Shown piece by piece: positions 6,693 to 60,868 of a stretch of 64,000 nucleotides of DNA (position 1 is the stretch's first letter; each line of letters opens with the position of its first letter). The notes under the pieces are model-generated. The model did no database searches, was not told where the DNA came from, and saw nothing but the letters and a program-made list of their open reading frames with translations. The stretch is from an uncultured candidatus Brocadiaceae bacterium. Its GTDB lineage: Bacteria > Planctomycetota > Brocadiia > SM23-32. A program made the translations under genes and the position numbers. The stretch is from contig CAZNGS010000009.1 in the NCBI GenBank assembly GCA_964572825.1, positions 8,413-72,412 of the forward strand. The letters are read 5' to 3'.

Positions 6693-6835
6693 CCCCGGAT
6701 ACCTCGGCAAGCGGCACGGCGGCCACGCCGGAGTAAGTCCGCAGCCACAGCACTCCGGCATAGGGGTCCTCGCACAGCACCCCTGGCTTGAACACACCTT
6801 TCAGAAACGCCACGCACTTTCCCCCCCGGTAGAGG

Positions 6836-8443: not shown

Positions 8444-8500
8444 CCGCGCTCTACTCTCCGTTCCGGCATAGTCTGCTCAGCCGGCAATAGGCAGAGCGCG

Positions 8501-9667
8501 TCAGTCCACGGGCAGCTCCCTGGGATCCACCGGCCGGTCGGTTTTGGCCGAGAGTTGTGCCGCCAGGCACATGCGCAGGGACTCGATGGCGCCGTCCATA
8601 TGGTTGTCCGGCGGGCAGTTACGCTCGACCCCGCGCATGAGCGAGCCCATCGTCCCCATCATCCCGGCCACGGGCCCGGAGATGTCGTACCAGGGCCCTT
8701 CAAGGGGGTCGAACGGGTTGATGTCGGACCACAGGGGCTCGTACACGTGATCGGGCAGCTCCAGGAGGACCGGCCGTCCGCCGCGCTCGGTGAAGACCTC
8801 GACGAACTCCCGCTCGCCCGGGGCCGGGAAGTGCCAGTTCCAGTTGTGCTGCGCCCGGATGGAGCCGCCCTCGGCCATCACGCGGATGTTGGTCCGGTGC
8901 GCTTCCATGCCGGAGTGGTTCTCGATGTGGTAGGCGACGCAGCCGCCCTCGAACTCGTAGATGGCCATGGTGGTCTTCATGCCCGCCCACGCCTTGACCG
9001 CGATGCAGGGCCTGTCCACCCACCATCGCACGAGGTCCGCGTGATGGATCACGTGGCCCAGGTAGGCGGGCGTGGGGTCCTCCAGGTCGATCGGCCCGCC
9101 CTGCCAGTAGTTCTGTAGCTCGATCACCCCGGGCCGGCCCATGCGCTCGGGCGTGAGCAACTGCTTGACCGAGTAGCAGGCGGGGTTGTAGCGGCAGTTC
9201 TGGTTGACGGCCAGCCAGATGCCGGCCTCCTGCGCCGCGCGCGCCATCTTCCGGGCCGATTCAACGGTGGTGGCCACCGGCTTATGGATCATCAGGTGCT
9301 TTCCTGCCTCGCCCGCCGCCTCGATGACCTCCATGCGGAGGGCCTCTTTCTTCTCGCCGGCGCCGAAGCAGCAGTCCACCACGTCCACCTGGTCGTTTTC
9401 GATTACCTCGTGCCAGTCGTCCGTGATGGTGCCCACGTCGAAGCCCTTGCGCCTGGTTTCCTCGATCCGGTCCTCGTTGATCTCCGCGGCGGTCACCACG
9501 TTGAACCGGGCCGCCTGGTAGGCGGGAAGGTGCATCGTCAGCACCACCCAGTGCAGCCCTATGCTGCCGATGCCGTAGTCCGTCTTCTGGTTCTCGAAGT
9601 CGATCCGGTAGGGCGGAACGCTGAACCCCAGTGCCTGCTCCATGCGGCTGACATCCTGTTCGGCCAT
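8501..9667 (-). CDS. Gfo/Idh/MocA-family NAD(P)-dependent oxidoreductase
   Basis: An IGSIGLHWVV...NVVTAAEINEDRIEETRR...DVVDCCFGAGEKKEALRMEVIEAAGEAGKHLMIHKP Rossmann-like N-terminus and the family's C-terminal domain are present. The start is at the internal ATG 9667, with AGGAG upstream. Confidence 0.7.
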   Translation of the reverse strand: MAEQDVSRMEQALGFSVPPYRIDFENQKTDYGIGSIGLHWVVLTMHLPAYQAARFNVVTAAEINEDRIEETRRKGFDVGTITDDWHEVIENDQVDVVDCCFGAGEKKEALRMEVIEAAGEAGKHLMIHKPVATTVESARKMARAAQEAGIWLAVNQNCRYNPACYSVKQLLTPERMGRPGVIELQNYWQGGPIDLEDPTPAYLGHVIHHADLVRWWVDRPCIAVKAWAGMKTTMAIYEFEGGCVAYHIENHSGMEAHRTNIRVMAEGGSIRAQHNWNWHFPAPGEREFVEVFTERGGRPVLLELPDHVYEPLWSDINPFDPLEGPWYDISGPVAGMMGTMGSLMRGVERNCPPDNHMDGAIESLRMCLAAQLSAKTDRPVDPRELPVD

Positions 9668-12092: not shown

Positions 12093-13283
12093 TCAGGTGG
12101 TCGGCCGGGCAATCGGAGCGGCTATCTGGTCGAAGAAGGGCGTGGTGCGGCGTTCCACGCATTGGGCCGCGTAAAGGTACACGGCCGCCGACCAGGTCTG
12201 CCAGTCCTGCCCCTGCGGGGTGCCGTCCTGGGCCCGAAACCATTCGTTGAAACCGAACTCGACATCGGCGCTTCTGGAGGGACGAACCAGTTCGGTCAGG
12301 GCGGCGAGATTGCGCTCCGCCACGCGGTAACGCCGGGCACTCACGCAGGCCGCGACATAAAAACCGCATATGTAGGGCCATACCCCGCCGTTGTGGTACT
12401 CGCCCGGCCTGCCGTACTGCTCATAGCGCGGGCGCCAGTCCGGGTGCTCGGGCCGGATGTAGGGGAACAGGGCCGGTGGAAGCTCGAGGGCCAGGTCCCC
12501 GTTGCTTCGCAGCGCGGCGCATTCGTGTTCGACCCACGAGACGATGGATTGGGCCCGGGAGCGCGAGGCGATGCCCGAGAGAATGGCCAGGCTGTTGCCC
12601 AGCAGGTCGAATCGCTCGCTGCGGTAGAGCTTGTAGGACCACAGTGCGTAGTACGGCTTGTGCGCCAGCACGAGACCCTCATGGACGTGGGGATGCCTGC
12701 TCTCCGCTTCGACTGAGAAACGGTTCATGAGCTCCCGCAGCGTCCGGGCGCGCTCGTCGTGCCCATAGAGGCGCAGATACATGTGGACCAGGGCGTTCAC
12801 GTACAGGCCGTAGCCCAGCACCCATTGCTCGTCCCGCCAGTCACTGGTGGGCAGTTGAGCGACGATGACGCGGTCCTCGGGGCTCTGGTATTCCATCCAG
12901 GTCAGCGCGGCCCGGGCGGCCTCTTCCAGGAAGCTTTCCTCCCCGGTGGCGTTTCTGAACAGGGCCAGCCCCAGGAGGAAAAGCGGCGTAGTATCGCTGG
13001 CCCCTCTATTCTCCGGATCGTGGACGAGGGAAGGAATGTGTCCCCGCTGGCTCTGGTTGTTAGCCAGCGCCTGGAGGACCCGCCTCACCGTGTAGATGAG
13101 CCGCTCCTCCCCCGAGAGCAAGATGCCCGGCGTGGATATCATGATGTCGCGCGTATAGGGCTCGGGGTAGCCCCAGCCCGCGGTGCGAAAGAGGGAACGG
13201 TAAGGGCCCCGACGGTTGTGCTTCAGAACCTCCAGGGCCGCCTCCTTTGTCTCCGCCACGGCGCAGGCAAGTTTCCTGTCCAT
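12093..13283 (-). CDS. (alpha/alpha)6-barrel glycoside hydrolase (GH63 / GH100 / glycogen-debranching C-terminal-like)
   Basis: About 396 aa, with WGYPEPYTRD, SDTTPLFL, DWRDEQWVLGYGLYVNAL and GEYHNGGVWPY. These motifs are typical of six-hairpin glycosidases such as neutral invertase, mannosylglycerate hydrolase or GDE-C. Confidence 0.55.
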   Translation of the reverse strand: MDRKLACAVAETKEAALEVLKHNRRGPYRSLFRTAGWGYPEPYTRDIMISTPGILLSGEERLIYTVRRVLQALANNQSQRGHIPSLVHDPENRGASDTTPLFLLGLALFRNATGEESFLEEAARAALTWMEYQSPEDRVIVAQLPTSDWRDEQWVLGYGLYVNALVHMYLRLYGHDERARTLRELMNRFSVEAESRHPHVHEGLVLAHKPYYALWSYKLYRSERFDLLGNSLAILSGIASRSRAQSIVSWVEHECAALRSNGDLALELPPALFPYIRPEHPDWRPRYEQYGRPGEYHNGGVWPYICGFYVAACVSARRYRVAERNLAALTELVRPSRSADVEFGFNEWFRAQDGTPQGQDWQTWSAAVYLYAAQCVERRTTPFFDQIAAPIARPTT

Positions 13284-31184: not shown

Positions 31185-31943
31185 TCAGGTGGTGAGAGCG
31201 TGCTCCCTGCCGCGCACGATGCAGCGCTCGCCCGTCCCCCGCGCCATCTGCCCGAAGGCATCCATTTGTTCCGGCCGGAACGGCATCACTTCGTGAAGCT
31301 CCGGGCTCAGGCAATCGTCGGGACGAAAGTTCTGCAACGCCACGGCCCGGGCCCCCTCCAGCTCCGGCAGGATGCCGCGCAGTTCGTCCTCCCCCACCAG
31401 GCCGGGGACGAGGGTGATGCGGAACTCGTGGGGCAGTCCGCTGTCGCGGATGAGGTTGATGGACCGCCGCACCGCGCCGATGTCCACTTCCGCGTCCGTC
31501 ACCCGCCGGTAGTCCGTCGGGTTCAGCGGCGCTTTGACGTCCATGGACATGACGTCCACGCAGTTTTCTTCGATCAGCTCTTCCACCACGTCCGGGCGGG
31601 TGCCGTTGGTTTCCACCATCACGTCCACGGAGAACTCGTGGAGCCTCTCCGTCAGGTCCACCAGTTCCCGGCCGTGCAGGGCCGGCTCGCCGCCCGTGAC
31701 GGCCACGGCGTCCACCCAGCCCCGCTGAGCGCGCAGATAGGCGGCGACCCGCTCGAACGGGACCGTCTCCATCTGCTCCGGGGCCAGCACCAGGTCCCCG
31801 GCGTGGCAGTAACGACAGCGCAGGTTGCAGTGCGGCAGGAAAAGGACCGAAGAGACCTTACCCTCCCATTCCAGCAGGCTGCTCTCGATGAATCCTTTGA
31901 TTTGCATTTTTCGTGCGCAGACCTGGCAGGCTCCCTCTTTCAT
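31185..31943 (-). CDS. nrdG: anaerobic ribonucleoside-triphosphate reductase activating protein (radical SAM); an alternative start is the ATG at 31907
   Basis: MQIKGFIESSLLEWEGKVSSVLFLPHCNLRCRYCH carries a CxxxCxxC radical-SAM motif. The ATG at 31943 overlaps the upstream stop as ATGA. The ATG at 31907 fits NrdG N-terminal alignments better. Confidence 0.7.
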   Translation of the reverse strand: MKEGACQVCARKMQIKGFIESSLLEWEGKVSSVLFLPHCNLRCRYCHAGDLVLAPEQMETVPFERVAAYLRAQRGWVDAVAVTGGEPALHGRELVDLTERLHEFSVDVMVETNGTRPDVVEELIEENCVDVMSMDVKAPLNPTDYRRVTDAEVDIGAVRRSINLIRDSGLPHEFRITLVPGLVGEDELRGILPELEGARAVALQNFRPDDCLSPELHEVMPFRPEQMDAFGQMARGTGERCIVRGREHALTT

Positions 31944-34900
31944 TCGACGCGGCCGGCAGGCGGGCCGTCACCGGCGGGACACAGCACGATGCTGGTCTGC
32001 ATCGGATAGCCGCAGATGCACCCTACGCTGCCCTCCGGCATCATCAGCAGGCCCCCGGCCGGCAGCATGGTGATCCAGCAGCCGGGCCGCGAGACCATGG
32101 TCAGGGCCACCTTGCGGTCGGCCACCGTATCGTATCCCTTGCAGACTTCTTCGCGGAAGAACAGGCAGCGCTCCGAGGCGCTGAAGGGCATGCAGCGCCG
32201 ACTGCCGCCGAAGTTGCGGTCGCTGACGTCCCTGCCGGTGGCGATCTCGCAAATGGGCACGTTCTCCGTGATCCAGGGGTTGTAATACAGCTTGCCGCCG
32301 ACGACCGCGGGATGCTGGATGCTGCCGTTGTGGTCCGTGGTGTTGGGGAGCACCTTCGCCTGGCTGTTCATGACCGTGTGCCACTTTTGCTGCCCGTTGG
32401 CCGGGTCCCAGGCGGATACGTCGTAAATGGCGATGTAGGGCTTCTCCGATTCATCCTCCAGGTACGTCGTGGTGCACAGGAGCGTCTCGTCGGCGTAGGT
32501 CAGGTAGAGGATGAACCGGGCCTTCTGCTCCAGCGGTTTCCGCCATTCCTCGCGGCCGCTCTCCAGAGCCACGGCCACCAGGTAGGCCTCCTTCTCGATA
32601 AAGTCCACCATGTCCACCCGGCCGTTTTCGGCATTCATGGCGGCGTCGCTGCGGCTCTCGACGAAGAAGACCTGCCGCCGGCCGACCGTGATGGATGGGT
32701 TCAGGATGGCGCCGCCCTCATATTCCCACAGACGCCGGAAGTCGGACTTGTCGATCGCGAAGAGGTTGTCACTGACGATGGGGCGGCTGCGCCCGCAGCG
32801 GGGTCCGTAGAGAAGGGGCTTTTTATTGGGAGCGTCGACGGTGTTGAAGGAGGCGCGGGGGTGCTGGTTGGTGCCGATCAGGTAGTCCCCCTGGGTGGCA
32901 ACGAGCCCCCAGTCGCGGTCAGAGCGCGGTCCCTTCAGCTTCCGTACGGTCCGTCCGTCGGCCAAGTCGAGAACCCGGCACTGGCTGCCCGAGGCCACAT
33001 AGAGGTGCCGGTCATCGACGCACATGGGGTTCGCATCGTGGCTGGCGATCAGCCGGGAGGAATCCGGCACTTCCTTCGTCCACAGGTAGGTGCCGTTGTA
33101 GGCATCCACGACGGTCAGGTAGTTCCGGCCCAGCACGAACAGCCGGCCGTCCCTGTAGAGGGGGGCGGCCGGGATGTGGTGGCGGTCCTGGTAGCGCTCC
33201 GGTCCCGGCGGGCCGAACCACTGGGTCATGAACTGGGTGCCGACCCGCGTGTCGCGGCTGTTGGATGTCTGCTGGGCGTCCGCGTACATGTGGGTCCACG
33301 ACCCCGCCCCGTCCAGCGGGCCGCGCGTCAGCGTGCCCCGGGCGCCGTCCCCCTCGGTGACGATCCGGAGCCCGGGCAGCCTCTCTCCCGCCCACTGCCG
33401 CAGGCGTCGCCCTCCGGACTCATCCGCCAGCACCAGCATGCCCCCGCAGGGCCTCAGCACCCGGAAAACCTGATGGGCCTCGTATGCATCCCAGCCTCCG
33501 GCGGACACGATCAGGTTCGCGGAGTAGCTGGGATACGGCAGCGGCCGGGATATCCGATGCACCACGACTCGTTTTCCGTAGAGTCCGGCGGCGTGGAGTC
33601 GCTCCCGGGCCCGCCGCGCCTCCGCGTCGTCCGGGACGGGGATAACCACCCGGAACTCCGAGTTCGCCGCCACCTCTGCCGCCAGTGAGGGGGCGTCCTG
33701 CCCCAGCACCATGCAGAATCCCTTGCGCATTCGGGTCTCCGCCAGGGCCCGGGCGGCCACCGAGTGCACGGGCGAGCGGAGCCGAACCGTTGCGGACCTC
33801 GAGGAGCCGGCCGACGGCGGCCCGTGGCCGAAGCAGTAGATCAGCCCCTTCGTGGTGCTCACGTAAAGCGAGCCCTCGGCGAAAGCCAGTTCGTGGGCCT
33901 CCCCCTCCACCTGCGTGCGCCACGTCTCCCGCCCCGTGTCGGCGTTGTATGCGGCCACGCAACCCTCCCCACCGGCGAAGAGGGTGGCGCCCGCGAGCAA
34001 AAGCGCCGAGGCGGGGGCCTTATCCACGCGCCACTTCTCGCCGTCCGCCAGGGCCCTGCCCACCGCCGGATGCTCCCGGATGCGGAGGCCGTCGGCCGTC
34101 TTTCCCAGGTAGTATTTCCGTTTGCTCTGGAGGGTCCTTTCCACGCGGGCAGACATGGTTTTTTCGAAGACCTGCCGCGGTACCGCGCAGAGATGGTATT
34201 GGAACCTTTCCCGCATGTATCGACCCCGCCCGTCCGTGATGCGCACCAGGTAGTAAGCATCCTTATCGGCCACCAGATGGCGACATGCTATCCCCACGGC
34301 GTCCGGCGCCGGCTCTCTGGTGAATCTGGGCTGTTTCTCGGGCTTCTCAACTTCGAGCCCGCGCACGCGCACGGTGGAGATTCCGTATTCACTGGGCCCG
34401 TAGACGACCATGTCGTGCATCGCTCTGGGATAGCCGCCGCCACCGGCGCGCTTGTAGGCCACATTCTTGCGCTCCAGGGCCTCTCCATCCGACCGGCGAA
34501 AGACCGCCGGAGCCGTGCGGCCGGTGGGCACCCAGAGGCATCTCTCGGTGGCCAGCACGTAGGATTCGGCCGGATAGGGGCTCTCCCTCTTCCAGTGGAG
34601 CCGACCCGTAGCGGCGTCAACGGCGAACAGATACACGCCCTGCACGGGGAACAGACCGGCGGCGAAATACACGGTGCCGTCATAGACGGTCACGCCGGTC
34701 CGCACGGGCCATTGCGACATCAGGCGCCCGTGGCCGATCACCAGTCGTCGGTCGGGAGCCGCGCTGAATTGCCAGAGCAGTTCACCGTCGCCGGCGTCCA
34801 GGCAATAGACCATGCCGTCGTCGGCACCGAAGTACACGTGCCCATCACCGACCGTGGGCGCCAGCCGGACCGCTCCATTGGCGTAGAAACGCCACCGCTC

Positions 34901-35248
34901 CGCTCCGGAGGCCGCGTCCAGGCAGATCAGGGCTTCCTCCGTGGAGGAGGCGTAATACAGGCGCCCGTCCGCCACGACGCAGGCATAGGCGAAGTCGTAG
35001 CTGACCGGCGGGAGGTAGCCCGGTCGCACGTGGGTGCCGTACCGGGCGGGTCGGGGTGCATGCGGCGCCCGATGCACCCAGAGCTGCCGCAGGGGGGGTT
35101 CCGGGCTTTCAGCGGTAGTGTGGTTCCGCGTCGGGCCGCCCCCGAAAGCGGGCCAGTCGCCAGCATCCGCAACGGAAGCAAGACACAACACTCCAGCGAA
35201 GAGAACTGTGATCGACAGTCTGGACGCTGAGTTTGCGCACTGCATCAT
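31940..35248 (-). CDS. large secreted PQQ-like beta-propeller repeat protein
   Basis: A signal peptide (MMQCANSASRLSITVLFAGVLCLASVADA) is followed by many G.VY.G..DG.LY.LD..TG...W repeats. GGAGAG sits 5 nt before the ATG at 35248. The product is about 1100 aa. Confidence 0.7.
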   Translation of the reverse strand: MMQCANSASRLSITVLFAGVLCLASVADAGDWPAFGGGPTRNHTTAESPEPPLRQLWVHRAPHAPRPARYGTHVRPGYLPPVSYDFAYACVVADGRLYYASSTEEALICLDAASGAERWRFYANGAVRLAPTVGDGHVYFGADDGMVYCLDAGDGELLWQFSAAPDRRLVIGHGRLMSQWPVRTGVTVYDGTVYFAAGLFPVQGVYLFAVDAATGRLHWKRESPYPAESYVLATERCLWVPTGRTAPAVFRRSDGEALERKNVAYKRAGGGGYPRAMHDMVVYGPSEYGISTVRVRGLEVEKPEKQPRFTREPAPDAVGIACRHLVADKDAYYLVRITDGRGRYMRERFQYHLCAVPRQVFEKTMSARVERTLQSKRKYYLGKTADGLRIREHPAVGRALADGEKWRVDKAPASALLLAGATLFAGGEGCVAAYNADTGRETWRTQVEGEAHELAFAEGSLYVSTTKGLIYCFGHGPPSAGSSRSATVRLRSPVHSVAARALAETRMRKGFCMVLGQDAPSLAAEVAANSEFRVVIPVPDDAEARRARERLHAAGLYGKRVVVHRISRPLPYPSYSANLIVSAGGWDAYEAHQVFRVLRPCGGMLVLADESGGRRLRQWAGERLPGLRIVTEGDGARGTLTRGPLDGAGSWTHMYADAQQTSNSRDTRVGTQFMTQWFGPPGPERYQDRHHIPAAPLYRDGRLFVLGRNYLTVVDAYNGTYLWTKEVPDSSRLIASHDANPMCVDDRHLYVASGSQCRVLDLADGRTVRKLKGPRSDRDWGLVATQGDYLIGTNQHPRASFNTVDAPNKKPLLYGPRCGRSRPIVSDNLFAIDKSDFRRLWEYEGGAILNPSITVGRRQVFFVESRSDAAMNAENGRVDMVDFIEKEAYLVAVALESGREEWRKPLEQKARFILYLTYADETLLCTTTYLEDESEKPYIAIYDVSAWDPANGQQKWHTVMNSQAKVLPNTTDHNGSIQHPAVVGGKLYYNPWITENVPICEIATGRDVSDRNFGGSRRCMPFSASERCLFFREEVCKGYDTVADRKVALTMVSRPGCWITMLPAGGLLMMPEGSVGCICGYPMQTSIVLCPAGDGPPAGRVE

Positions 35249-35465
35249 GCACTCTCCAATTCCTTTCAGGCACCCGCGCCGGCCGGACATTCAACTTCGA
35301 TCCGTCCAGTGTACCCGTTGCTGCGCGGCGGGCAACTGCCGGCCGCGGCGGCCCGAACGCGTCCCGAACACGCTGGCCGGCCAGTTCCTTGAGATTACTG
35401 CGTCGTCGACCCACGAGTCCGTCGCCGGCCACCAGAACATTACGTTCCGCAATTGTCCGTCCCTG

Positions 35466-50616: not shown

Positions 50617-51942
50617 ATGATGACCTTTCCGGAGGGTTTCGTCTGGGGTGCTGCCACGTCCGCCTTCCAGGTCGAAGGGGCAGCGCGCGAAGACGGCAAA
50701 GCCCCCTCCATATGGGACACCCACGTGCACAAGCCGGGCACGGTCCGAGACGGCTCAAACGCCGACATCGCCGCCGACAGCTACCACCGCTGGCGGGAGG
50801 ACATCGAGTGCCTGAACGAGCTGGGCGCCGATGCCTACCGGTTCTCCATCTCCTGGCCCCGGGTCATTCCGGACGGACGCGGCCCCGGGAACCAGAAGGG
50901 CTTCGACTATTACAACCGCCTGATCGACGCCCTGCTGGAGAACGGCATCACTCCCTACGTCACCCTCTACCACTGGGACCTGCCGCAGGCCCTGGAGGAC
51001 CAGGTGGGCTGGGAAAGCCGGGAGATGGCGGGCATTTTCGCGGACTACGCCGGCCGCATGGTCGCCGCCTTCGGCGACCGCGTCACCCACTGGCTGACGT
51101 TCAACGAAATGCACGCCCTCGTCGATCAGGGCTACGGTACGGGAACCAAGGCGCCCGGGAAGAAACTGCCCGAAAAAGAGGTCACGCAGGTCTATCACCA
51201 CGTTCTGCTCGCCCACGGGAAGGCCGTCCGCCGCATGCGCGCCGAGCGGGATGGCCTGCAGATCGGCACGGCAGAGAATCCTCGCGCCTGCGTGCCCGTC
51301 GTCGCCACGGAGGAGAACATCCGGGCTGCACGCATCGCGTGGGACCGCCAGATCGGGTTCCTCTTCGAGCCCATGTACAACGGGCGCTACCCGGACGGGC
51401 TCGGCGTGTGTCCAGATGTGCGTGAGGGGGATATGGAGACCATCCGGGCAGACCTCGACCTGGTGGGGCTCAACTTCTACTTTGGCACCTACGTGGAGGC
51501 CAGCGACGAGCCGCCGTACTACCGCCGGTTCCCCTGGCCGGAATACCACCCTGCCGCGCCATCCGAGGGATGGATCCGGATGATTCCGGAGGTCGTCTAC
51601 TGGGGGGTGCGCTTCGCCGCCGAGAGATACGACGTCCCGGCCATCTACGTCTTCGAGAACGGTTTCCCCCTGCCCGGGGACGAGGACCCGGAACAGAACC
51701 TGAACGACGTGTCGCGCATCATGTTCGTGCGCAGCTACCTGACCGCCCTCCACCGGGCCGTTCGGGAGGGCTACCCGGTCAAAGGATACTTCTACTGGAC
51801 GCTGATGGATTCCTTCGAATGGGCCAGCGGCTTCGGGAGCCGTTTTGGCCTCTACCGGACCGATTTCGAAACCCTGGAGAGGACGCCCCGGCTGAGCGCC
51901 CGCTGGTACGGCGAGGTGGCGGCGCGTAACGCCATTGTCTGA
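50617..51942 (+). CDS. GH1 beta-glucosidase
   Basis: FPEGFVWGAATSAFQVEGA, the TLYHWDLPQ region with the TFNE acid/base glutamate, and the nucleophile region YVFENG are present. AGGAG sits upstream. Confidence 0.9.
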   Translation: MMTFPEGFVWGAATSAFQVEGAAREDGKAPSIWDTHVHKPGTVRDGSNADIAADSYHRWREDIECLNELGADAYRFSISWPRVIPDGRGPGNQKGFDYYNRLIDALLENGITPYVTLYHWDLPQALEDQVGWESREMAGIFADYAGRMVAAFGDRVTHWLTFNEMHALVDQGYGTGTKAPGKKLPEKEVTQVYHHVLLAHGKAVRRMRAERDGLQIGTAENPRACVPVVATEENIRAARIAWDRQIGFLFEPMYNGRYPDGLGVCPDVREGDMETIRADLDLVGLNFYFGTYVEASDEPPYYRRFPWPEYHPAAPSEGWIRMIPEVVYWGVRFAAERYDVPAIYVFENGFPLPGDEDPEQNLNDVSRIMFVRSYLTALHRAVREGYPVKGYFYWTLMDSFEWASGFGSRFGLYRTDFETLERTPRLSARWYGEVAARNAIV

Positions 51943-52104: not shown

Positions 52105-55100
52105 ATGAAGCGAGTGGCCCTGTTGACGGTGACGATCCTGGCAGTCTGTTCATCTGGCCCGTGGGGAGTGGACGCAGGGGCGGCCGAGTATTCCTGGCAG
52201 CGGCCGCACGCCCGGGTCCTTCCGAGGGGTGACCTGGAATGGGCGCCGCAGCCTTTCGAGTTCCAGGCCGGCGACGTGGTCCGCTGCATCGACTACGAGG
52301 GCGGCGACGACGCCAATCCCGGCACGAAGGCCCGGCCCTGGAAGCATCACCCCTGGGACCCCGCCGCCACCGGCCGGGCGGCCCGGGCCTCCGGCCCGAT
52401 CACCTACCTCTTCAAACGCGGTGTCATCTACCGGGGCAGGCTCCTCGCCGACGAATCCGGCGAGCCGGGCAACCCCGTCCGCCTGACCAGCGATCCCGAC
52501 TGGGGCGAGGGCGAGGCCGCGTTCTATGGCTCCAGGCGCATCGAGGACGGCTGGAGGCGCTGCACGTCCTCGGACGTCCCCGAGCACATGCCGGAGCCGG
52601 CGAAGGTGTGGTACAAAGACATCGGCACCGAGTGGCGCCCGTGGGCCCTGTGGGAGCTGCGGGACGGGCAGGTCACGCGCATCCCGATCGCCAGGGAGCC
52701 GAACTGGCAGATCAGCAATCCGGACGATCCCCAGAGCGAGTGGCACGAATGGACCGGCCGCATCAAGGGCGAGGGCTCCATCGACACGGTGCACCTGACC
52801 CAGAAGGACCCCCACTTTTTCGACGGCGGCTTCGTCTGGACCGAATGGAGCGGCAACATGGGCACCATCCACCTCGCCGCCATCCGGGGATACGATCCGG
52901 ACCGCCACCTGCTGAAGGCCGGCAACGGCAGCAAGGGCAACCGCTACTACATCGAGAACGTGCCGGGTTTTCTGGACTCCCCCGGCGAGTATTACCACGC
53001 CATGGACGGCCCCCACGCGGGCCGGCTCTACCTGCGCCTGCCGGACGACCGCAACCCCAATGGCGCCATTCTGGAGGGCAGCGCCGTCAAGGTGCCCATC
53101 ACCATCATCGACCGGGCAAACATCGAGATCAGCGGGCTGCGGTTCAGCTTCAACGACGTGGGAGACCCGGGCACGGGCTGGCCGCCCGCCACGCAGGCGC
53201 CGGCCGCCATTCGGGTGGCCGGCAACTGCCGCAACATCCGCGTCTCCCACTGCCGGTTCCTCCATGTGATGAGCGTGCTGACCGCCTACCCCCGCATGAA
53301 CGAGAAGTACACTCAAATCTACCTGCGCGACCTGCTGCCCTGGCGAGAGGACCTGGTGGAGAACATATCCATCACGGACTGCGACATCGCTTACGTTGAC
53401 CGCCCGGCGATACAGTTCCGCACCGGGCGCATGCTGGGGCGCATCGAATGGCCGCCCGTGGGCAAGCTGGGAAACGTCGCCGTGCTGCGCAACCGGCTCC
53501 ACCACGTAAGCAACCGACCGGGCGACAACATGTACAGCGCCATCCCCGCCATTTCGGTGCTCTTCCCCCGGGAGGCGGAGATCGCCGGCAACATCGTGGA
53601 CCGCTGCTGGGGCAGCGGCATCTTCGTTTTCGGCGGCAAGGCCAGCGGGGCCATCGGAGAGGCGCCCCTGACCCGCATCCTGATCCACCACAACAAGGCC
53701 ACCGATACCATGCTCGCCTGCAACGACTACGGGGGCATCGAATACTGGCAGGGCGGCCCCATCTACGCCTTCTGCAACATCTCCGGCAACTCCATCGGCT
53801 ACAAGAATTACATCGATATCAAGAACCACTGGAAGACCGTGGCCTACAACATGTACCTGGACGGGACCTTCAAGAGTTACACCTTTAACAACATCATCTG
53901 GGGCAAGAGCAACGATCTGGACTACCCTTACCGCAACCGCGGGGCCTACTTCGTGGTCCTGGGCTTCATGGACCACTTCTTCAACAATACCGCCTGCAGG
54001 TTTATGCACGGCATCGTGGGCTCGTCCGGCAACCGATCCAGCTTCCTGGGCAACGTGCTGGACGACATCAGCGTCTCCTTCATCCAGCAGAACCGGCCCG
54101 GCGACACCAGCCTGCGGGGAGGTGGAGACACCGGCGCGATGGGCCAGCGCGGCATGCCCACCAATGCCTACGGCTACAACATCTTCGTGGGCGACAGTGA
54201 ACGCGGCGTGGGCTCCGCGCGGGACGTGGGCGGCCCCACCGTCCAGGACTGGCGGGCCGACCTGGAAGAGCTTGGCGCCTTCTGCGCTCAGACCGGCTGG
54301 CGGACCGACCGAAGTCCGCTGCGCGACGGAGAGAACCACGATTTCGGCCTCGTGCCCGATTCCGCCGCGCAGGACCGCGGCGTGAAGTTCTTCGTGCCCT
54401 GGGCCCTTTACGGCATGGCCGGAGAGTGGAATTTCTACCTCCACCCCGCCGACCCCGCAGTGGTGCTCGGGGAAGGTTTCTACATGACCGAGGAATACGT
54501 CGAGAGGCACATGTACAGCAACATCCCCCGTATGAACCTGGAAGTGCCCGGCGCCACCGAGCAGGATTACGTCCGGGGCCCCCTGGAGGACTGGGTCAAG
54601 GGGGCCCTGCGCTTCAACGGCACCGACCGCTACGCCGTCCTCACCCACGAGGCCATCACGCAGGACCGCACCTACGGCCACGGTGTCCCCGAGGGCGAAG
54701 ACCGCATGAGCAGAGGCGAATTCCCCTTCGAGGGCGAGGAGCGCAAAAGCCTGGACATGGAGACCAATGACTTCCTGGTGGAGACCTGCTTCAGGACCGA
54801 ACCGGGCCACACCGGGGGGACGCTGGTCTCGAAAATGGGAGACGCCGGCTACCGGGTCTGCGTCAACGAGCGGGGCGGCACCACGCTGCTGATCCGGCAC
54901 GGGGAGGCCGTTGACCGGGCCGAGTGCGGCACGGCGGTCAACGACGGCCGGTGGCACCACGTGCTCGCCGAAGCCGACCGCGAAAACGCAGAGCTGAACA
55001 TCTACGTGGACGGCCGGCGCACGCGGCGGGCCCGGACCCACAACGTACCCCGCGGCGCATCGCTCGCCAACACGGCCGACTTCCTGGTGGGCAAAAGCCC

Positions 55101-55284
55101 GGAGGGCGACTACTTCGCCGGCGCGATGGACTTCCTGCGGGTCAGCCGCGGCACGCTGGCCGATGCCAACACCACGATCGAGGAGATCTACGCCTGGCAG
55201 TTCGACGGCCCGTTCCTGCGCGACTTCCGCGGCAACGAACCGCTCGGGAAACGCGATGCCGGGGCCATTGAGGGTGTGCAGTAG
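52105..55284 (+). CDS. secreted right-handed parallel beta-helix (pectate-lyase-fold) protein with a C-terminal LamG/concanavalin-A-like domain
   Basis: A signal peptide (MKRVALLTVTILAVCSSG) is followed by PbH1-type beta-helix repeats (NxxxxHH, NIxxNxI patterns). The C-terminal about 180 aa are jelly-roll like (GTAVNDGRWHHVLAE...LNIYVDG...ADFLVGK). GGAGGG precedes the ATG at 52105. Confidence 0.7.
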   Translation: MKRVALLTVTILAVCSSGPWGVDAGAAEYSWQRPHARVLPRGDLEWAPQPFEFQAGDVVRCIDYEGGDDANPGTKARPWKHHPWDPAATGRAARASGPITYLFKRGVIYRGRLLADESGEPGNPVRLTSDPDWGEGEAAFYGSRRIEDGWRRCTSSDVPEHMPEPAKVWYKDIGTEWRPWALWELRDGQVTRIPIAREPNWQISNPDDPQSEWHEWTGRIKGEGSIDTVHLTQKDPHFFDGGFVWTEWSGNMGTIHLAAIRGYDPDRHLLKAGNGSKGNRYYIENVPGFLDSPGEYYHAMDGPHAGRLYLRLPDDRNPNGAILEGSAVKVPITIIDRANIEISGLRFSFNDVGDPGTGWPPATQAPAAIRVAGNCRNIRVSHCRFLHVMSVLTAYPRMNEKYTQIYLRDLLPWREDLVENISITDCDIAYVDRPAIQFRTGRMLGRIEWPPVGKLGNVAVLRNRLHHVSNRPGDNMYSAIPAISVLFPREAEIAGNIVDRCWGSGIFVFGGKASGAIGEAPLTRILIHHNKATDTMLACNDYGGIEYWQGGPIYAFCNISGNSIGYKNYIDIKNHWKTVAYNMYLDGTFKSYTFNNIIWGKSNDLDYPYRNRGAYFVVLGFMDHFFNNTACRFMHGIVGSSGNRSSFLGNVLDDISVSFIQQNRPGDTSLRGGGDTGAMGQRGMPTNAYGYNIFVGDSERGVGSARDVGGPTVQDWRADLEELGAFCAQTGWRTDRSPLRDGENHDFGLVPDSAAQDRGVKFFVPWALYGMAGEWNFYLHPADPAVVLGEGFYMTEEYVERHMYSNIPRMNLEVPGATEQDYVRGPLEDWVKGALRFNGTDRYAVLTHEAITQDRTYGHGVPEGEDRMSRGEFPFEGEERKSLDMETNDFLVETCFRTEPGHTGGTLVSKMGDAGYRVCVNERGGTTLLIRHGEAVDRAECGTAVNDGRWHHVLAEADRENAELNIYVDGRRTRRARTHNVPRGASLANTADFLVGKSPEGDYFAGAMDFLRVSRGTLADANTTIEEIYAWQFDGPFLRDFRGNEPLGKRDAGAIEGVQ

Positions 55285-56178: not shown

Positions 56179-56402
56179 ATATCAAACATATCCGACGGCA
56201 AAACGGACACGAAAACGCTTTCTAGTGCCGCTTGAGCAACCTATAATATACACTCGCATTGCAGGAATCTCAAACATGCGCGCGGGACCCCGCGTAGACC
56301 TGCGGCGGAGCAAGGTCCCGGCGCAGCGTCCGGACCGACTCCCCGGAGGAAGGGTTTACGCTGGGCGCTCAGATCAGATTACCCCCGGACGGAGGCAGGC
56401 AG

Positions 56403-57638
56403 ATGGCGCAAGCAGTGTACAAAGACGTGCGGGTTCTGGATTTCACGCAGTACCAGCAGGGCCCGGTCGCCACTCAGATGCTGGGCGACTTTGGGGCCGA
56501 AGTCATCAAGATCGAACGTCCCGGGAGCGGTGACGGTTTCCGCGGCAGCAGCGCAACCGGCAGCCTCAACGCCGACCTGGAGGGCGGCTACAGCAAGGCG
56601 TTCATCGCCTGCAATCGGAACAAGAAGAGCATCACGGTCAACCTGAAGAGCGAAAAGGGCACGCAGATTGTCCACGAGTTGGTGAAACTCTCCGACGTGG
56701 TGGTTTCGAATTTCCGCCCCGGTGTGATGGAGCGCCTGGGGCTGGGATACGACGAACTGAGCCAGATCAACCCCGGGATCATCTGCGCCTACGGCACGGG
56801 CTACGGCCTGACCGGCCCCGACCGCGACACGCTGGGGCAGGACATGATGGCCCAGTGCCGCGGAGGTCTGGTCAGGGGCGATCCTCCCCGCAAGGTCGGG
56901 TTCAACGTCTGCGACCAGATGGGGGGCTTCCTGCTGGCGATGGGCGTCATGCTGGCGCTGGCTGCGCGTGAGAAGACGGGAAAGGGGCAGATAGTGGATT
57001 CAAATCTGCTCAACACCGCGGTTGTGGCCGACAGTCTGGCGGCCACCGTTTACCTCAACTCGGAGAATTATCCGCCCGAACCTGAAGAGAAGCAAGGGTC
57101 CGAACAGGACCATGAGCCGAACATGCCCAATCCGACCTACGCCCTCTACCAGGCGGCTGACGGCAGATGGGTGCACATCATTGACGCCTTCCGCGACGAG
57201 CCGCTCCGGCGCCAGTGCCGGGCGCTGGACATCCCCGAGGAGGTGGCCGACGATCCCCGTTTCCAGGATGTCCATAACCTCAGCCCGGAAGCCTACGAGG
57301 AACTGAAGGGCATCCTGGCCGAAGCAGTGGCGAAGTTCACGGCCGAACAGGTGGTCAAGCGGTTCGAAAAACAGGATATGATGGCGGTGCCGGTCAACAG
57401 CTACCGCGAAACCTTCCAGGACCCCCAGGTGCTGCACAACAACATGGTCATCGAGGCACAGCATCCGCGGGCCGGCAAGATGAACCTGGTCGGTTTCCCC
57501 ATCAAGCTTTCCGATACACCGGCCGAACTGCGTGACCCGCCACCCCTGCTGGGCGAGCACAACGAAGAGGTGCTCGGCGACCTGCTGGGAATGAGCGACG
57601 AGGAGATCGAGACACTCAGGGACGAAGGCGTCATCTGA
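56403..57638 (+). CDS. family III CoA-transferase (CaiB/BaiF/Frc family)
   Basis: VRVLDFTQYQQGPVATQMLGDFGAEVIKIERP and a GYGLTGP region are present. The product is about 411 aa. GGAGG precedes the ATG. Confidence 0.85.
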   Translation: MAQAVYKDVRVLDFTQYQQGPVATQMLGDFGAEVIKIERPGSGDGFRGSSATGSLNADLEGGYSKAFIACNRNKKSITVNLKSEKGTQIVHELVKLSDVVVSNFRPGVMERLGLGYDELSQINPGIICAYGTGYGLTGPDRDTLGQDMMAQCRGGLVRGDPPRKVGFNVCDQMGGFLLAMGVMLALAAREKTGKGQIVDSNLLNTAVVADSLAATVYLNSENYPPEPEEKQGSEQDHEPNMPNPTYALYQAADGRWVHIIDAFRDEPLRRQCRALDIPEEVADDPRFQDVHNLSPEAYEELKGILAEAVAKFTAEQVVKRFEKQDMMAVPVNSYRETFQDPQVLHNNMVIEAQHPRAGKMNLVGFPIKLSDTPAELRDPPPLLGEHNEEVLGDLLGMSDEEIETLRDEGVI

Positions 57639-57668
57639 AAAGGACCTTCATAGAGGGGAGAGATAGCG

Positions 57669-58193
57669 GTGAGCGACGAGGAAAGGCAGATCATTACCGA
57701 CGAGGCGCTGGAGAAGCTCCGCGTGGGCGAACTGATCGACACCTATCAGTTTACGGTGACGGACAAGTGGGTGAAGAAATACGCCATGACCATTGAGGAT
57801 CCCAATCCCCTGTGGTTCGAGGACGAGTACGCCGAGCGAGAGGGCCGGTTTGGCCGCCGGGTCGCTCCCGCCGCGTTCTGCGTGGCCATGAACCCCATGG
57901 AAGCCAAAGGCTGCTGTCCGGCCAGCGCTTTCTGGGCCGAGCTGTACGGGGTCCCCGACCACGGGCATCACTGGGGCGGGCTGGCCGCCTACAACGAGTT
58001 CGAGTACGAGAAGCCGATCTACGTCGGCGACACGATAACCTGCGAGGTGCGCAACCGGCGTGCCTACGAGAAGCAGGGCTCGGAGGCCGTGCTGGTCATC
58101 GCCGAGACCGAGTATAAGATGATAAACCAGGACGACGAGACCGTCGGGATCGGCGTCTACGGCAACCTGGTCCAGTTCGGCAACGAGGACTGA
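57669..58193 (+). CDS. MaoC-like (hotdog-fold) dehydratase, N-terminal-half type subunit
   Basis: At 174 aa it resembles the N-terminal non-catalytic hotdog half of split MaoC / mesaconyl-CoA-type hydratases. GTG start with GGGGAG. Confidence 0.55.
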   Translation: MSDEERQIITDEALEKLRVGELIDTYQFTVTDKWVKKYAMTIEDPNPLWFEDEYAEREGRFGRRVAPAAFCVAMNPMEAKGCCPASAFWAELYGVPDHGHHWGGLAAYNEFEYEKPIYVGDTITCEVRNRRAYEKQGSEAVLVIAETEYKMINQDDETVGIGVYGNLVQFGNED

Positions 58194-58247
58194 GCACCGG
58201 CCGAGCCAGGGGATGCTCCTCCAGATCACCGCGAGGGAGAATACACG

Positions 58248-58733
58248 ATGTCTACTGCGCAGCTTTACTACGAAGACGTGAGCGTCGGCGACAACGTCCG
58301 TCCGCTCTACTTCTACATGGACCAGATGCAGCTCATCAAATGGGGCGAGGTCACCGGCAACAGCGACGCGGGCCACTGGCACATCTGGCACAACCGGCAC
58401 AAGGAGGTCTCCACCACCGAAACCGAGCGCAGCGGCCACGACCCCTCCGTGACCGGCCAGTTCAAAACGGCCCTGATGGAAAAGATGCTGATGGACTGGG
58501 CCGGCTCGCGCGCCTGGGTCAAGAAGATGTCCGTCCAGTACCGCGTCTGGGACCACTTCTTCGAACTGAAGACCTTTACCGGCACCGTCACCGGCAAGCG
58601 GCAGCAGGACGGCGAGAACCTGGTCGACCTGGAGGTCCAGATGGCCCGCGAGGACGGCCGCAGGACCACCAGGGGCACCGCGACGATCGCCCTGCCGTCC
58701 GCCTCGAAAAAGGAACCGGAGAGCAGCGAATGA
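58248..58733 (+). CDS. MaoC-like (hotdog-fold) enoyl-CoA hydratase/dehydratase subunit
   Basis: At 161 aa it is a hotdog fold. It pairs with the preceding gene. Its stop overlaps the next ATG as ATGA. Confidence 0.55.
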   Translation: MSTAQLYYEDVSVGDNVRPLYFYMDQMQLIKWGEVTGNSDAGHWHIWHNRHKEVSTTETERSGHDPSVTGQFKTALMEKMLMDWAGSRAWVKKMSVQYRVWDHFFELKTFTGTVTGKRQQDGENLVDLEVQMAREDGRRTTRGTATIALPSASKKEPESSE

Positions 58734-60868
58734 AAAGGCTCCTGGCGGCCGCCGCGCTGGTCATCCTGGTGAGTTCCTGCGCAAGCGTCGGTCCGGCTCC
58801 GCCGGGCTGCCACATGGCCGCTTCACACACCGTTGTCGCCGGCCAACCCGCCGAACTCGGAATCCGCGGAAAGGCCGCGCATCTGGAGATCGAGCAGACG
58901 CTCGAGCCCGGCGGACCGGTCGAGCAATGGAAGGCGGACAACCAGAAGGCGCGGGAAAACGGCGAGCGTTTCCCGGACAAGCTGACCGTGGCCAGGCTGG
59001 CCGTGAGCTATGCCGACGGCCGGGGTGTGGAAGCCGATATCCGCTACAACGAAAGCGTCGGCGCGCTCCGGCGGGAGTGGTGGAACCCCGTCGACGGTTT
59101 CATCCATCACCTCGCCTTCGCGCAGGTGGCCTGGACGCGCCCGATCGGGGAGAGCGGCCTCCGGCACAACGTGGTCTACCGGATGAGATGGGCCAATCCG
59201 CGCCCCGAGGTGGCCATCAGGTCGATTGAGGTGAAGCCGGCAGAGGGTCTGGGCGAGGGGAGACTCCTGATCTTCGATGCAGCCACCGGGTCCACGCCGT
59301 CCGCGGGCGCAACTTACTTCGTGGCGCCCGACGGCGACGATTCCGCCCCCGGCACTTTCGATCGACCGTGGACAACCCTCCACAAGGCCGCCGAAACCAT
59401 CCAGTCGGGCGATACGGTGTACGTCCGCGGGGGTACCTACCGGCCGACCGAGCGGATACTCTTCAAGTACATCGACGCGCCTGAGGGGCAGCGCACCCGC
59501 ATCATCGGCTACCCCGGCGAGACCGCGACCTTCGACTTCATGGACGCTCACTGGGACACCAGCCCGGAACGCCGGCAGTACGGCTTCGAGCCGTATCCCC
59601 ACGATCAATCCATGATCATGGCCTATGACTGCGACCGTTTTACGTTCAAGAACCTGCATCTGACCCGCTCGCGGGCGCGCGGGTTCGGCATGGAGACCGG
59701 CTGGTGGAAGTGGGCTCACCGGGACAACCTGATCGACGGCGGCAGGCCGGAGGTGGTCAATAACACCCCGTTCCAGGATTCCGAAATCTGCTACTGTTCG
59801 ACGTACATGACCTACAACGCGGGGATCCGGTTCCGCGGCGCCCGTAAGGGCAGACTGATAGGCAACGTCCTCATGCGCCCCGAGACGATCGCCATGGGCC
59901 CCGCGGATCCGAAGAATCCCGGCTCCGGCCCCGTGGCGGGGCTGGACGCCACCACGTTCTACTCGCGGAGCGGCAACAAGAAGCGCAACCCCCCCATGGA
60001 GGGAATCGACGGGGGAGGCTTCCACGACGTGGAGGTCGCCTACAACGAGATATGCTGGGGCGACAAGGAGTGCTTTCTTATCGACGGGGACGTGGACGGC
60101 CTGCGCGTGCACCACAATTACGTGCACGATGCCTGGAACCTGCCCTGGGTCGGCGGCATCTCCCCCAACGGCTACGGCCGGCAGGAGGACATCAAGATCG
60201 ACCACAACATCGCCCACCACGTGGGCACAGGCTTCGGCATAGGCACGGAAGGCGGCGGCTGGGGCAAACGGGTCCGCATTCACCACAACCTCGCCTATGA
60301 CTGCCACTGGTCCGGCGTGGGGGTCAGCGGCGCGTGGAAGAGTAACGCAAGCCTTTATGACATCTCGGTCTACAACAACACGCTGTTTCACAACGGCCAC
60401 TACACCCGCAATCCCCGTATCCGGTGGCGCGAGAACAGGGGGCCGGCTGGGGGCATCTCGGTCAGCTTCCCTGCCGAAGACCTGGAGGGGGTTGTGGAGG
60501 ACGTCGTGGTCGCCAACAACCTGATTCTGCGACCCCGGGACTACGCCCTGACCCTCAACGGGGAGGGCGATCCGGAGGAAAGCAACATCGTCTTCACCCA
60601 CAACGTGACCGACCTGGAGGCCGAAAGCGACATCTTCGACCTCGAGCGCAACAGTGGCTGGCACCCGGTTCGAGACGACGGCCTCCTGGTGGTCGAAAGG
60701 CCGCTCCTCCGGGACCCGCGGGACCGGGACTTCCGCCTCGTGCCCTCCACCCCGGCCACAGACGCCGGCATCGCCATCAATCCCCGGGGCAAACCCGACC
60801 CGGAGGGCGGGAAGACCTGCGTCGGCGCCTTCGGGCCGGACTCGAAATGGGTGGAGCTGGACCCGTGA
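58730..60868 (+). CDS. beta-helix (pectate-lyase-fold) lipoprotein with an N-terminal uncharacterised domain
   Basis: A signal peptide with a lipobox (LVILVSSC) is present. An N-terminal domain ends in RWANPRPEVAIRSIEV. Then come FVAPDGDDSAPGTFDRPWTTLHKAAETIQSGDTVYVRGGTY and multiple HHN/NN beta-helix rungs. GGAGAG RBS. Confidence 0.7.
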   Translation: MKRLLAAAALVILVSSCASVGPAPPGCHMAASHTVVAGQPAELGIRGKAAHLEIEQTLEPGGPVEQWKADNQKARENGERFPDKLTVARLAVSYADGRGVEADIRYNESVGALRREWWNPVDGFIHHLAFAQVAWTRPIGESGLRHNVVYRMRWANPRPEVAIRSIEVKPAEGLGEGRLLIFDAATGSTPSAGATYFVAPDGDDSAPGTFDRPWTTLHKAAETIQSGDTVYVRGGTYRPTERILFKYIDAPEGQRTRIIGYPGETATFDFMDAHWDTSPERRQYGFEPYPHDQSMIMAYDCDRFTFKNLHLTRSRARGFGMETGWWKWAHRDNLIDGGRPEVVNNTPFQDSEICYCSTYMTYNAGIRFRGARKGRLIGNVLMRPETIAMGPADPKNPGSGPVAGLDATTFYSRSGNKKRNPPMEGIDGGGFHDVEVAYNEICWGDKECFLIDGDVDGLRVHHNYVHDAWNLPWVGGISPNGYGRQEDIKIDHNIAHHVGTGFGIGTEGGGWGKRVRIHHNLAYDCHWSGVGVSGAWKSNASLYDISVYNNTLFHNGHYTRNPRIRWRENRGPAGGISVSFPAEDLEGVVEDVVVANNLILRPRDYALTLNGEGDPEESNIVFTHNVTDLEAESDIFDLERNSGWHPVRDDGLLVVERPLLRDPRDRDFRLVPSTPATDAGIAINPRGKPDPEGGKTCVGAFGPDSKWVELDP

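Follow-up and report, generated by a model that had tools for sequence, protein, structure and literature searches.

A rare gene module pairing a family III CoA-transferase with a split MaoC-type hotdog hydratase is tied to a beta-helix protein family in Planctomycete/Verrucomicrobia-type bacteria

Canonical MaoC hydratases carry an Asp-x4-His motif together with a helix-capping Gly, and in the two-gene systems HadAB and ChsH1-ChsH2 one subunit is catalytic, while the other is an inert, pocket-forming partner; in the non-catalytic motif of ChsH2, Tyr replaces His (PMC11321319). ChsH1-ChsH2 is the steroid side-chain hydratase of Mycobacterium tuberculosis, and HadAB, HadBC and HadBD are the mycolic-acid (3R)-hydroxyacyl-acyl carrier protein (ACP) dehydratases. 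In carnitine metabolism, (de)hydration is combined with coenzyme A (CoA) cycling by CaiB/CaiD, in which a family III transferase passes CoA from the product to the substrate and neither a lyase nor ATP is needed. The mesaconyl-CoA hydratase MeaC/Mch (PDB 8HGN) and the itaconyl-CoA hydratase PaIch of Pseudomonas aeruginosa (PDB 8HUC/8KHG) are single-chain double hotdogs (about 350 residues in MeaC), which act downstream of a dicarboxylate CoA-transferase in itaconate degradation and the methylaspartate cycle, in pathways that include a lyase. In the crystal structure of MeaC, the positions equivalent to the canonical motif are occupied by Asn226 and His231, which are hydrogen-bonded to the hydroxyl of bound malate (PMC10164722). 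Here we report an analysis of a gene module, comprising a CoA-transferase gene, two hotdog genes (hotdog 1 and hotdog 2) and a divergent araC-type regulator gene, in a 64-kb stretch of DNA (65% GC; hereafter the window) on contig CAZNGS010000009.1 from an uncultured candidatus Brocadiaceae bacterium.

The functional unit consists of the AraC regulator, the transferase, hotdog 1 and hotdog 2, and it is recurrently tied to one family of beta-helix proteins and to other glycan-locus genes. We consider it probable that this unit is an AraC-controlled catabolic module of glycan-utilisation loci, in which a glycan-derived acid would be activated as a CoA thioester and then hydrated or dehydrated by the hotdog pair. 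Every part of the module falls in a known superfamily, and it is the combination that is new within the literature searched, namely a split MaoC hydratase with Asn/His in its predicted catalytic subunit, a separate clade of family III transferases accompanied by an orthologous AraC regulator, and the placement in glycan loci with translational coupling to a beta-helix lipoprotein gene. In that literature we found no description of the module, nor of sugar-acid CoA esters in catabolism. An earlier interpretation made from the DNA letters and their open reading frames (ORFs), here called the sequence-only reading, had already proposed the three genes and the divergent regulator, and its coordinates agree exactly with the ORF list (Table 1). 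Its identification of the CoA-transferase, the hotdog pair, the AraC regulator and the link to the lipoprotein gene stands, whereas its attribution of the split architecture and its structured leader do not.

The transferase and the hotdog pair form a rare, conserved set in Planctomycete/Verrucomicrobia-type bacteria. Orthologs of the module proteins with 50-94% identity were found, and the relatives of hotdog 2 amount to 27 clusters in a database of 5.8 billion proteins, 26 of them in its own clade. A scan of 185,579 species genomes yielded two module loci and the JGI metagenome collection yielded one, from the same organism as the related locus L013 described below; these numbers are too few for synteny statistics.

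Hotdog 2 has no match in Pfam or NCBIfam. Among solved structures, the profile of its relatives matched ChsH1 (E-value 2.9e-6), a mycobacterial HadB-type protein (1.6e-4) and HadB, and its AlphaFold2 model, with a predicted local distance difference test (pLDDT) score of 84.5, matched ChsH1, NodN-like, PhaJ and HadB structures at a probability of 1.00. In the HMMER alignment, the hotdog 2 motif G-N38-S-D-A-G-H43 ('SGNsdagHW') is placed on the HadB motif G-D-L-N-P-I-H ('SGDlnpiHW'), with Asn38 standing in place of the motif Asp of HadB and His43 corresponding to its motif His. Thirteen close relatives have N38 and H43 without exception, and so do all of the 28 clade sequences collected from two database searches. 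Gly70, also invariant, is located near the beginning of the helix of residues 68-85 in the model and is the candidate oxyanion Gly. Such strict conservation of Asn, at a site that is conserved in other respects, speaks for function rather than decay, and the catalytic subunit is predicted to be hotdog 2, with an Asn38/His43/Gly70 site.

Hotdog 1 matched the Pfam family FAS1_DH_region (PF13452, E-value 3.2e-19) and gave a weak, sub-threshold match to MaoC. In its motif, D44-P-N-P-L-W49, the canonical His is replaced by Trp; D44, N46, P47, L48 and W49 are invariant in five hotdog 1 orthologs, and P45 is variable. The motif aligned with D-R-N-P-I-Y of ChsH2, and the sequence matches also included HadA. 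The AlphaFold2 model of hotdog 1 (pLDDT 86), in which the central helix is divided into three short pieces, has HadA/HadD and ChsH2-N as its best folds (TM-score 0.70). Hotdog 1 is described here as a putative non-catalytic partner subunit. A cross-subunit site, composed of the hotdog 1 Asp and the hotdog 2 His, was considered and set aside as a leading idea; the non-catalytic ChsH2 keeps D-x-N-P-I-Y, including the motif Asp, so that the Asp of the partner looks ancestral or structural.

The genes for hotdog 1 and hotdog 2 are adjacent in every module locus examined, and the profile and fold matches bear out the two-gene MaoC-type hotdog pair that the sequence-only reading had recognised. The pair appears to have the heteromeric MaoC architecture of HadAB and ChsH1-ChsH2, which are its best matches in both sequence and fold. 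The resemblance extends to two adjacent genes, a small catalytic subunit with the motif and the oxyanion Gly, and a partner with an aromatic residue in place of His and a shortened or broken central helix. The split arrangement had previously been ascribed to mesaconyl-CoA and itaconyl-CoA hydratases; the known enzymes of that kind are fused double hotdogs, and the split form is that of HadAB and ChsH1-ChsH2. A more distant arrangement was observed in locus L008 (5841-8794), and also in L009 and L010, where two hotdog 1-like genes, two hotdog 2-like genes and a DUF6282 gene are divergent from an Opp-type ATP-binding cassette (ABC) transporter, with no CoA-transferase on the contig.

Since ChsH1/ChsH2 and HadA/HadB are the nearest solved proteins in both sequence and fold, the pair could have no connection with glycans and be a HadAB-like or ChsH1-ChsH2-like hydratase of lipid, steroid or hopanoid enoyl-CoA or enoyl-ACP; the broken central helix of hotdog 1, like that of partners accommodating bulky substrates, would agree with such a role. 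However, the similarity is remote (E-values of 1e-6 to 1e-2, with 10-22% identity), and those enzymes have Asp/His in the catalytic site, while the hotdog 2 clade has Asn/His. Neither Ltp2 aldolase, DUF35, acyl-CoA dehydrogenase, thiolase nor any FAS-II gene was found in any locus. Instead of a DUF35/Ltp2 or ACP/FAS-II context, the module has glycan-locus genes and a family III CoA-transferase, which is no part of those systems. We regard a lipid or steroid hydratase as very improbable.

The Asn38-x4-His43 arrangement of hotdog 2 is the variant used by two structurally characterised dicarboxylyl-CoA hydratases, MeaC and PaIch, the PaIch chain having T-F-N-G-H-R-I-H in the same alignment columns. 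By analogy, the Asn-for-Asp replacement suggests that the substrate has a carboxylate or other polar group beside the reacting carbon, as dicarboxylic and polyhydroxy acids do, and is not a plain fatty acyl group. The kinship with mesaconyl-CoA and itaconyl-CoA hydratases that the sequence-only reading had suggested finds one specific point of support in the Asn-x4-His site; at the sequence level, no match was found and no cut-off was reached. The MeaC structure 8HGN was absent from the sequence and profile searches with the hotdogs at E-values up to 10 and was recovered by the fold search with hotdog 2 at rank 48 (E-value 7e-5); neither hotdog matched the itaconyl-CoA hydratase model RipB/Ich (NF038241) at E-values up to 0.01. 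Absence of the catalytic Asp/His from the hotdog proteins had been named as a finding that would refute the sequence-only reading. In the literal sense both residues are affected, with Asp changed to Asn in hotdog 2 and His changed to Trp in hotdog 1, but this test was ill-posed because the very enzymes taken as its models use Asn/His.

The shared Asn/His site is also an argument for a classical C5-dicarboxylate pathway of itaconate, mesaconate or citramalate. Here, the transferase would make itaconyl-CoA or mesaconyl-CoA from succinyl-CoA, the hotdogs would hydrate it to citramalyl-CoA or beta-methylmalyl-CoA, and a lyase encoded elsewhere would cleave the product, the glycan genes being mere neighbours. 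Besides the lack of a RipB/Ich match and of any sequence-level match to MeaC or PaIch, this pathway is opposed by the absence of a citramalyl-CoA or malyl-CoA lyase of the CitE/HpcH type from the scanned genes of the 64-kb window and from about 10 related loci.

The transferase bears on the same question. As proposed earlier, it is a family III CoA-transferase: its match to CoA_transf_3 (PF02515, E-value 3.8e-106) is full length, covering residues 7-387 and positions 2-366 of the 366 in the profile, and Asp171 is present. The best solved relative is human SUGCT (PDB 9BR6, 3.7e-63), followed by a formyl-CoA transferase entry, Rv3272, YfdW and more Frc entries. Asp171 aligned with the conserved Asp of SUGCT and is kept in all aligned orthologs that are at least 64% identical. 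Judging by the residue offset of the SUGCT hit, Asp171 would be the equivalent of Frc Asp169, the catalytic residue on which the acyl-aspartyl anhydride is formed. The window transferase resembles SUGCT, Frc/YfdW, Mct and Rv3272 as a full-length family III homolog with the conserved Asp, and differs from them in belonging to its own clade, under all equivalog cut-offs. This clade comprises about 25 proteins with at least 50% identity in the 5.8-billion-protein database, and beyond it lie generic CaiB/BaiF proteins of Actinobacteria, Dehalococcoidia and others with at most 49% identity. In NCBIfam, the transferase scored 229 bits with the Frc models TIGR03253 and NF003809 (cut-offs 504 and 442), 210 bits with succinyl-CoA:mesaconate CoA-transferase NF041294 (cut-off 700), 207 bits with succinate-glutarate CoA-transferase NF052585 (cut-off 750) and 76 bits with the CaiB model (cut-off 413). 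We describe it as an active-looking family III member that appears to fall outside every characterised specificity.

In favour of the C5-dicarboxylate pathway, SUGCT and the mesaconate and succinate-glutarate models, which are among the best matches of the transferase, represent dicarboxylate enzymes, and Rv3272 is reported to be an itaconate:succinyl-CoA transferase; however, all equivalog scores are far under their cut-offs. Taking the transferase and the hotdogs together, we consider this pathway unlikely. The highest NCBIfam bit scores of the transferase were those of the Frc models, which would point to a formyl-CoA:oxalate transferase for oxalate detoxification. This identity was rejected, as these scores are about half of the cut-offs, the Frc match is in two stretches, and the transferase of the module is always followed by a hotdog pair that plays no part in the metabolism of oxalate. 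It also fails on gene context, which lacks genes for oxalyl-CoA decarboxylase and oxalate transport: neither the decarboxylase nor an oxalate:formate antiporter was found among the scanned window genes or in the related loci. The sequence-only reading had offered a place in the Frc clade with oxalate genes nearby as grounds for abandoning its own proposal; on the bit scores and gene content just given, an oxalate function has next to no probability.

The AraC regulator, the transferase, the hotdog pair and the beta-helix family recur in about six independent loci, in many of which GHL6/GHL10 proteins, sulfatases, an aldo-keto reductase and an Amidohydro_2 protein are encoded as well. Two of the relatives have a taxon label, one being Verrucomicrobiales and the other 'Brocadiaceae'. 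In the Verrucomicrobiales metagenome-assembled genome (MAG; locus L007), the genes for the transferase, hotdog 1 and hotdog 2 are followed by that for a 636-residue Pel9A-like beta-helix protein, and in the MAG labelled Brocadiaceae (L006) AraC is followed by the transferase, hotdog 1 and hotdog 2, the hotdogs being 94% and 84% identical. The same order in L011 is continued by a GHL10/GHL6 protein. One organism, represented by L013, L014 and L019, has AraC, two transferases, hotdog 1, hotdog 2, a GH32 protein, a Pel9A-like beta-helix protein and a sulfatase, while in L015 a Pel9A/malectin beta-helix protein comes before the transferase, hotdog 1 and hotdog 2. The P0055 contig encodes GHL6, AraC, two transferases, hotdog 1, hotdog 2, a sulfatase, an Amidohydro_2 protein and an aldo-keto reductase, and the stromatolite locus L003 encodes an aldo-keto reductase, AraC, hotdog 1, hotdog 2, a GH140-like protein and a fused double transferase. 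Locus L012 contains a sugar ABC transporter, GHL6, Amidohydro_2 and aldo-keto reductase genes, a transferase gene (68% identity, no hotdogs), a sulfatase gene and two Pel9A-like beta-helix genes; its transferase gene is directly downstream of those for GHL6, Amidohydro_2 and aldo-keto reductase and lies about 7 kb from the two beta-helix genes.

Several variants of the transferase gene were observed in these loci. The L003 fusion (6827-8947, minus strand) is a 706-residue protein with two CoA_transf_3 domains, adjoins hotdog 1/hotdog 2 and has the equivalent of Asp171 in neither half in a MAFFT alignment; the enzyme may be non-canonical, or the missing Asp may be an artefact of the alignment. 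The transferase ortholog is divided between two ORFs in L001 (8227-9455; 283 and 138 residues) and in L006 (4306-5539; 166 and 258 residues), and these split ORFs are frameshifts, pseudogenes or assembly errors. L013 (6074-8696) and the P0055 contig have two tandem paralogous transferases, 68% and 64% identical to that of the window and both with the Asp, unlike the window with its single transferase; the tandem arrangement hints at a heteromeric transferase or at two acceptor specificities.

In the window, the gene for the beta-helix lipoprotein overlaps that for hotdog 2 in an ATGA at 58730-58733, with the lipoprotein ATG at 58730-58732 and the hotdog 2 TGA at 58731-58733. A stop/start overlap of the ATGA type is a classic mark of translationally coupled genes, and here it links the translation of a secreted lipoprotein to that of cytoplasmic CoA enzymes. 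The lipoprotein is 30-43% identical over more than 600 residues to the products of the beta-helix genes in L007, L012, L013 and L015. The 944-residue protein encoded downstream in the window is 29% identical to the lipoprotein over 647 residues and 31-35% identical to the members from the same four loci. The beta-helix proteins of the window and these loci form one family, with 27-66% identity over about 600 residues, and the family is located beside or near the transferase and hotdog genes in four other loci. In a profile search, it matched solved lyases and hydrolases (PL9, GH120, GH138 and GH136 proteins) at the N-terminal cap only, so that its members may be either, and its shared N-terminal domain of about 100-190 residues has no match in Pfam. 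The C-terminus of the 944-residue protein (about residues 750-940) repeats this domain, with 27-35% identity by blastp. The link to the lipoprotein gene suggested by the sequence-only reading is upheld by the ATGA overlap and by the same beta-helix family in four other loci. The overlap, taken with the conserved synteny to beta-helix and GH-like genes, speaks for a functional connection to glycans and thereby against a C5-dicarboxylate pathway with glycan genes as bystanders.

Table 1. Features of the module and its surroundings in the window (positions are those of the 64-kb stretch)
Feature	Position	Strand	Evidence and remarks
AraC/XylS-family regulator, 265 residues	55381..56178	-	Divergent from the operon; HTH_18, HTH_AraC
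Divergent control region	56179..56402		Sequence, sigma-70 scan, blocks kept in L006
Family III (CaiB/BaiF/Frc-type) CoA-transferase, 411 residues	56403..57638	+	PF02515
Hotdog 1, putative non-catalytic partner (HadA/ChsH2-N type), 174 residues, GTG start	57669..58193	+	PF13452
Hotdog 2, predicted catalytic subunit (HadB/ChsH1 type), 161 residues	58248..58733	+	Profile and fold
Beta-helix lipoprotein, 712 residues, MKRLLAAAALVILVSSC, Pel9A-like N-cap	58730..60868	+	PF22842, 1.9e-8
Second beta-helix protein, paralogous, 944 residues	61075..63909	+	Beta_helix 5.2e-20, NosD, Pel9A-like
Secreted LamG-domain protein, start taken at MKRVALL	52105..55284	+	Laminin_G_3, 1.5e-12; signal-peptide-like N-terminus
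GH1 beta-glucosidase	50617..51942	+	PF00232, 1.9e-137; TIGR03356, 491 bits vs cut-off 478.5

Planctomycetes and Verrucomicrobia play a major part in the degradation of complex glycans, which are often sulfated. In the proposed catabolic module, surface beta-helix proteins would attack an extracellular glycan, and a carboxylic acid released or derived from it would be imported. The transferase would form the CoA thioester of this acid, with succinyl-CoA, acetyl-CoA or the product-CoA of the pathway itself as the donor, and a hotdog 1/hotdog 2 heterodimer would carry out an (R)-specific hydration or dehydration across C2-C3 of the acyl-CoA. The substrate is probably a polar or dicarboxylic acid from a glycan. 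With neither a lyase nor a thiolase conserved alongside the module, the most parsimonious cycle would be similar to that of CaiB/CaiD, with CoA passed from the product to the next substrate and a net (de)hydration of the free acid. The module would share with CaiB/CaiD, and with the CoA-transferase/dehydratase pairs of 2-hydroxyacid fermentation, the logic of thioester (de)hydration with CoA cycling, but the module has a predicted heteromeric MaoC hotdog in place of the crotonase CaiD or of the radical enzymes that act as dehydratases in fermentation.

A number of observations weigh against this proposal. The glycan substrate of the beta-helix proteins is itself deduced from the match at their N-terminal cap, and the hotdog 1/hotdog 2 heterodimer is predicted from homology and adjacency. 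No transporter is conserved with the module, and locus L001 is an exception in having beta-propeller neighbours. The Asn of hotdog 2 is probably convergent, because the nearest relatives of its clade are canonical Asp/His proteins (the next-best outgroup proteins being mostly Asp/His), and it could mean something else, including a loss of hydratase activity. Nor is Asn/His exclusive to dicarboxylyl-CoA hydratases, and itaconyl-CoA hydration has been reported for other MaoC proteins with no claim of Asn/His (PMC11789021).

The genes that accompany the transferase in some of the loci raise the alternative of a CoA-dependent dehydratase for a glycan-derived sugar acid, such as an aldonate, aldarate or uronate from sulfated or acidic glycans. 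In such a pathway, the aldo-keto reductase would oxidise the sugar, the Amidohydro_2 protein would open the lactone and the transferase would thioesterify the acid; the hotdog pair would then eliminate the 3-OH to give a 2-keto-3-deoxy acyl-CoA, from which CoA would be transferred to a further substrate molecule. Aldo-keto reductase and Amidohydro_2 genes are co-oriented beside the transferase gene in L012 and the P0055 contig, an aldo-keto reductase gene is also present in L003, and among solved structures the aldo-keto reductase is closest to L-galactose dehydrogenase (1.5e-22). The sulfatase, GHL6/GHL10 and beta-helix neighbours fit this scheme, as does the absence of any enolase-type or IlvD-type dehydratase from all the loci. 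More distant homologs of the transferase, with 44-51% identity, are located in sugar-type clusters with sugar transporters, GFO/IDH/MocA or SDR dehydrogenases, an FAH hydrolase, a DHDPS aldolase and crotonase or MaoC proteins. In one of them, L016 (1087-10905), the neighbours are GntR/FCD, an FAH-family hydrolase, a GFO/IDH/MocA dehydrogenase, a sugar ABC transporter and a crotonase; in another, L018 (5452-11664) of Mycolicibacterium tokaiense, they are LysR, a canonical Asp/His MaoC protein, an SDR, a Sugar_tr MFS transporter and a DHDPS-family protein. On the other side, the case is drawn entirely from gene context, neither an aldo-keto reductase nor an Amidohydro_2 gene is present among the window genes scanned, and the Amidohydro_2 protein has no solved relative at E-values below 1e-5. 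Metabolism of aldonyl-CoA, aldaryl-CoA or tartryl-CoA was not found in the literature searched, and Asn/His has no demonstrated role on such substrates. We regard the sugar-acid dehydratase as possible, though not probable; if true, Planctomycete/Verrucomicrobia-type bacteria would possess a thioester-based route in place of the enolase-superfamily and IlvD/Edd sugar-acid dehydratases.

The four-to-five-gene unit of AraC, CoA-transferase, two hotdogs and a beta-helix protein places thioester chemistry inside glycan-utilisation loci and points to an undescribed step in glycan breakdown. As a compact system of three soluble proteins, the module could reveal a glycan-derived acid that needs CoA activation, show the role of the Asp-to-Asn change in MaoC hydratases, and give a functional handle on the beta-helix family and the GHL6/GHL10 proteins.

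The divergent regulator matched HTH_18 (2.4e-20), HTH_AraC (3.3e-14) and, weakly, the AraC_binding cupin in Pfam. An orthologous AraC is present in six loci; orthologs with 39-72% identity are encoded beside or near the module in L003, L006, L007, L011 and L013. These domains and the orthology across loci confirm the divergent AraC gene of the sequence-only reading. In the control region, the plus strand has a candidate promoter composed of TTTCTA (56219-56224), a 17-nt spacer and TATAAT (56242-56247), which is conserved, in the form TTTACT/TATACT, in the close relative L006. The TATAAT with a weak -35 element noted previously is thus present, one base away from the position assigned to it, and the -35 element matches at 3 of 6 positions. 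In the sigma-70 scan of the control region, no plus-strand site passed and only minus-strand sites were returned, by which a strong plus-strand sigma-70 promoter was rejected. Two minus-strand promoter-like sites face araC. The first (56273-56245), TTGAGA-17-TATATT with 10 of 12 matches, has its AT-rich block in common with the plus-strand TATAAT, and the second (56201-56174), TTGCCG-16-TATGAT, lies in the block around the araC start codon. Both the TTGAGA block and the start-codon block are conserved in L006. The 151-nt leader, claimed earlier to be structured, folds with a z-score of -0.11 relative to shuffled sequences and has no match in Rfam, on which grounds a riboswitch or structured leader was rejected.

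Each module gene is preceded by a Shine-Dalgarno-like GGAGG or GAGGGAG sequence. The coding signal is clear in the GC content of third versus second codon positions, at 0.82 vs 0.39 for the transferase and 0.87 vs 0.38 for hotdog 1. No lyase, aldolase, thiolase or oxalate-pathway gene was detected among the scanned window genes. The LamG-domain protein and the GH1 beta-glucosidase (Table 1) are possibly members of the same glycan locus. Elsewhere, the window encodes a sulfatase (4339-5682), a GH100/GDE_C-like protein (12093-13283) beside a GT4 glycosyltransferase and a PIG-L deacetylase, a PQQ-like beta-propeller protein of 1116 residues (31940-35290), two sigma-54 activators and a Ser/Thr kinase. 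Such a set of genes is typical of Planctomycete/Verrucomicrobia-type genomes.

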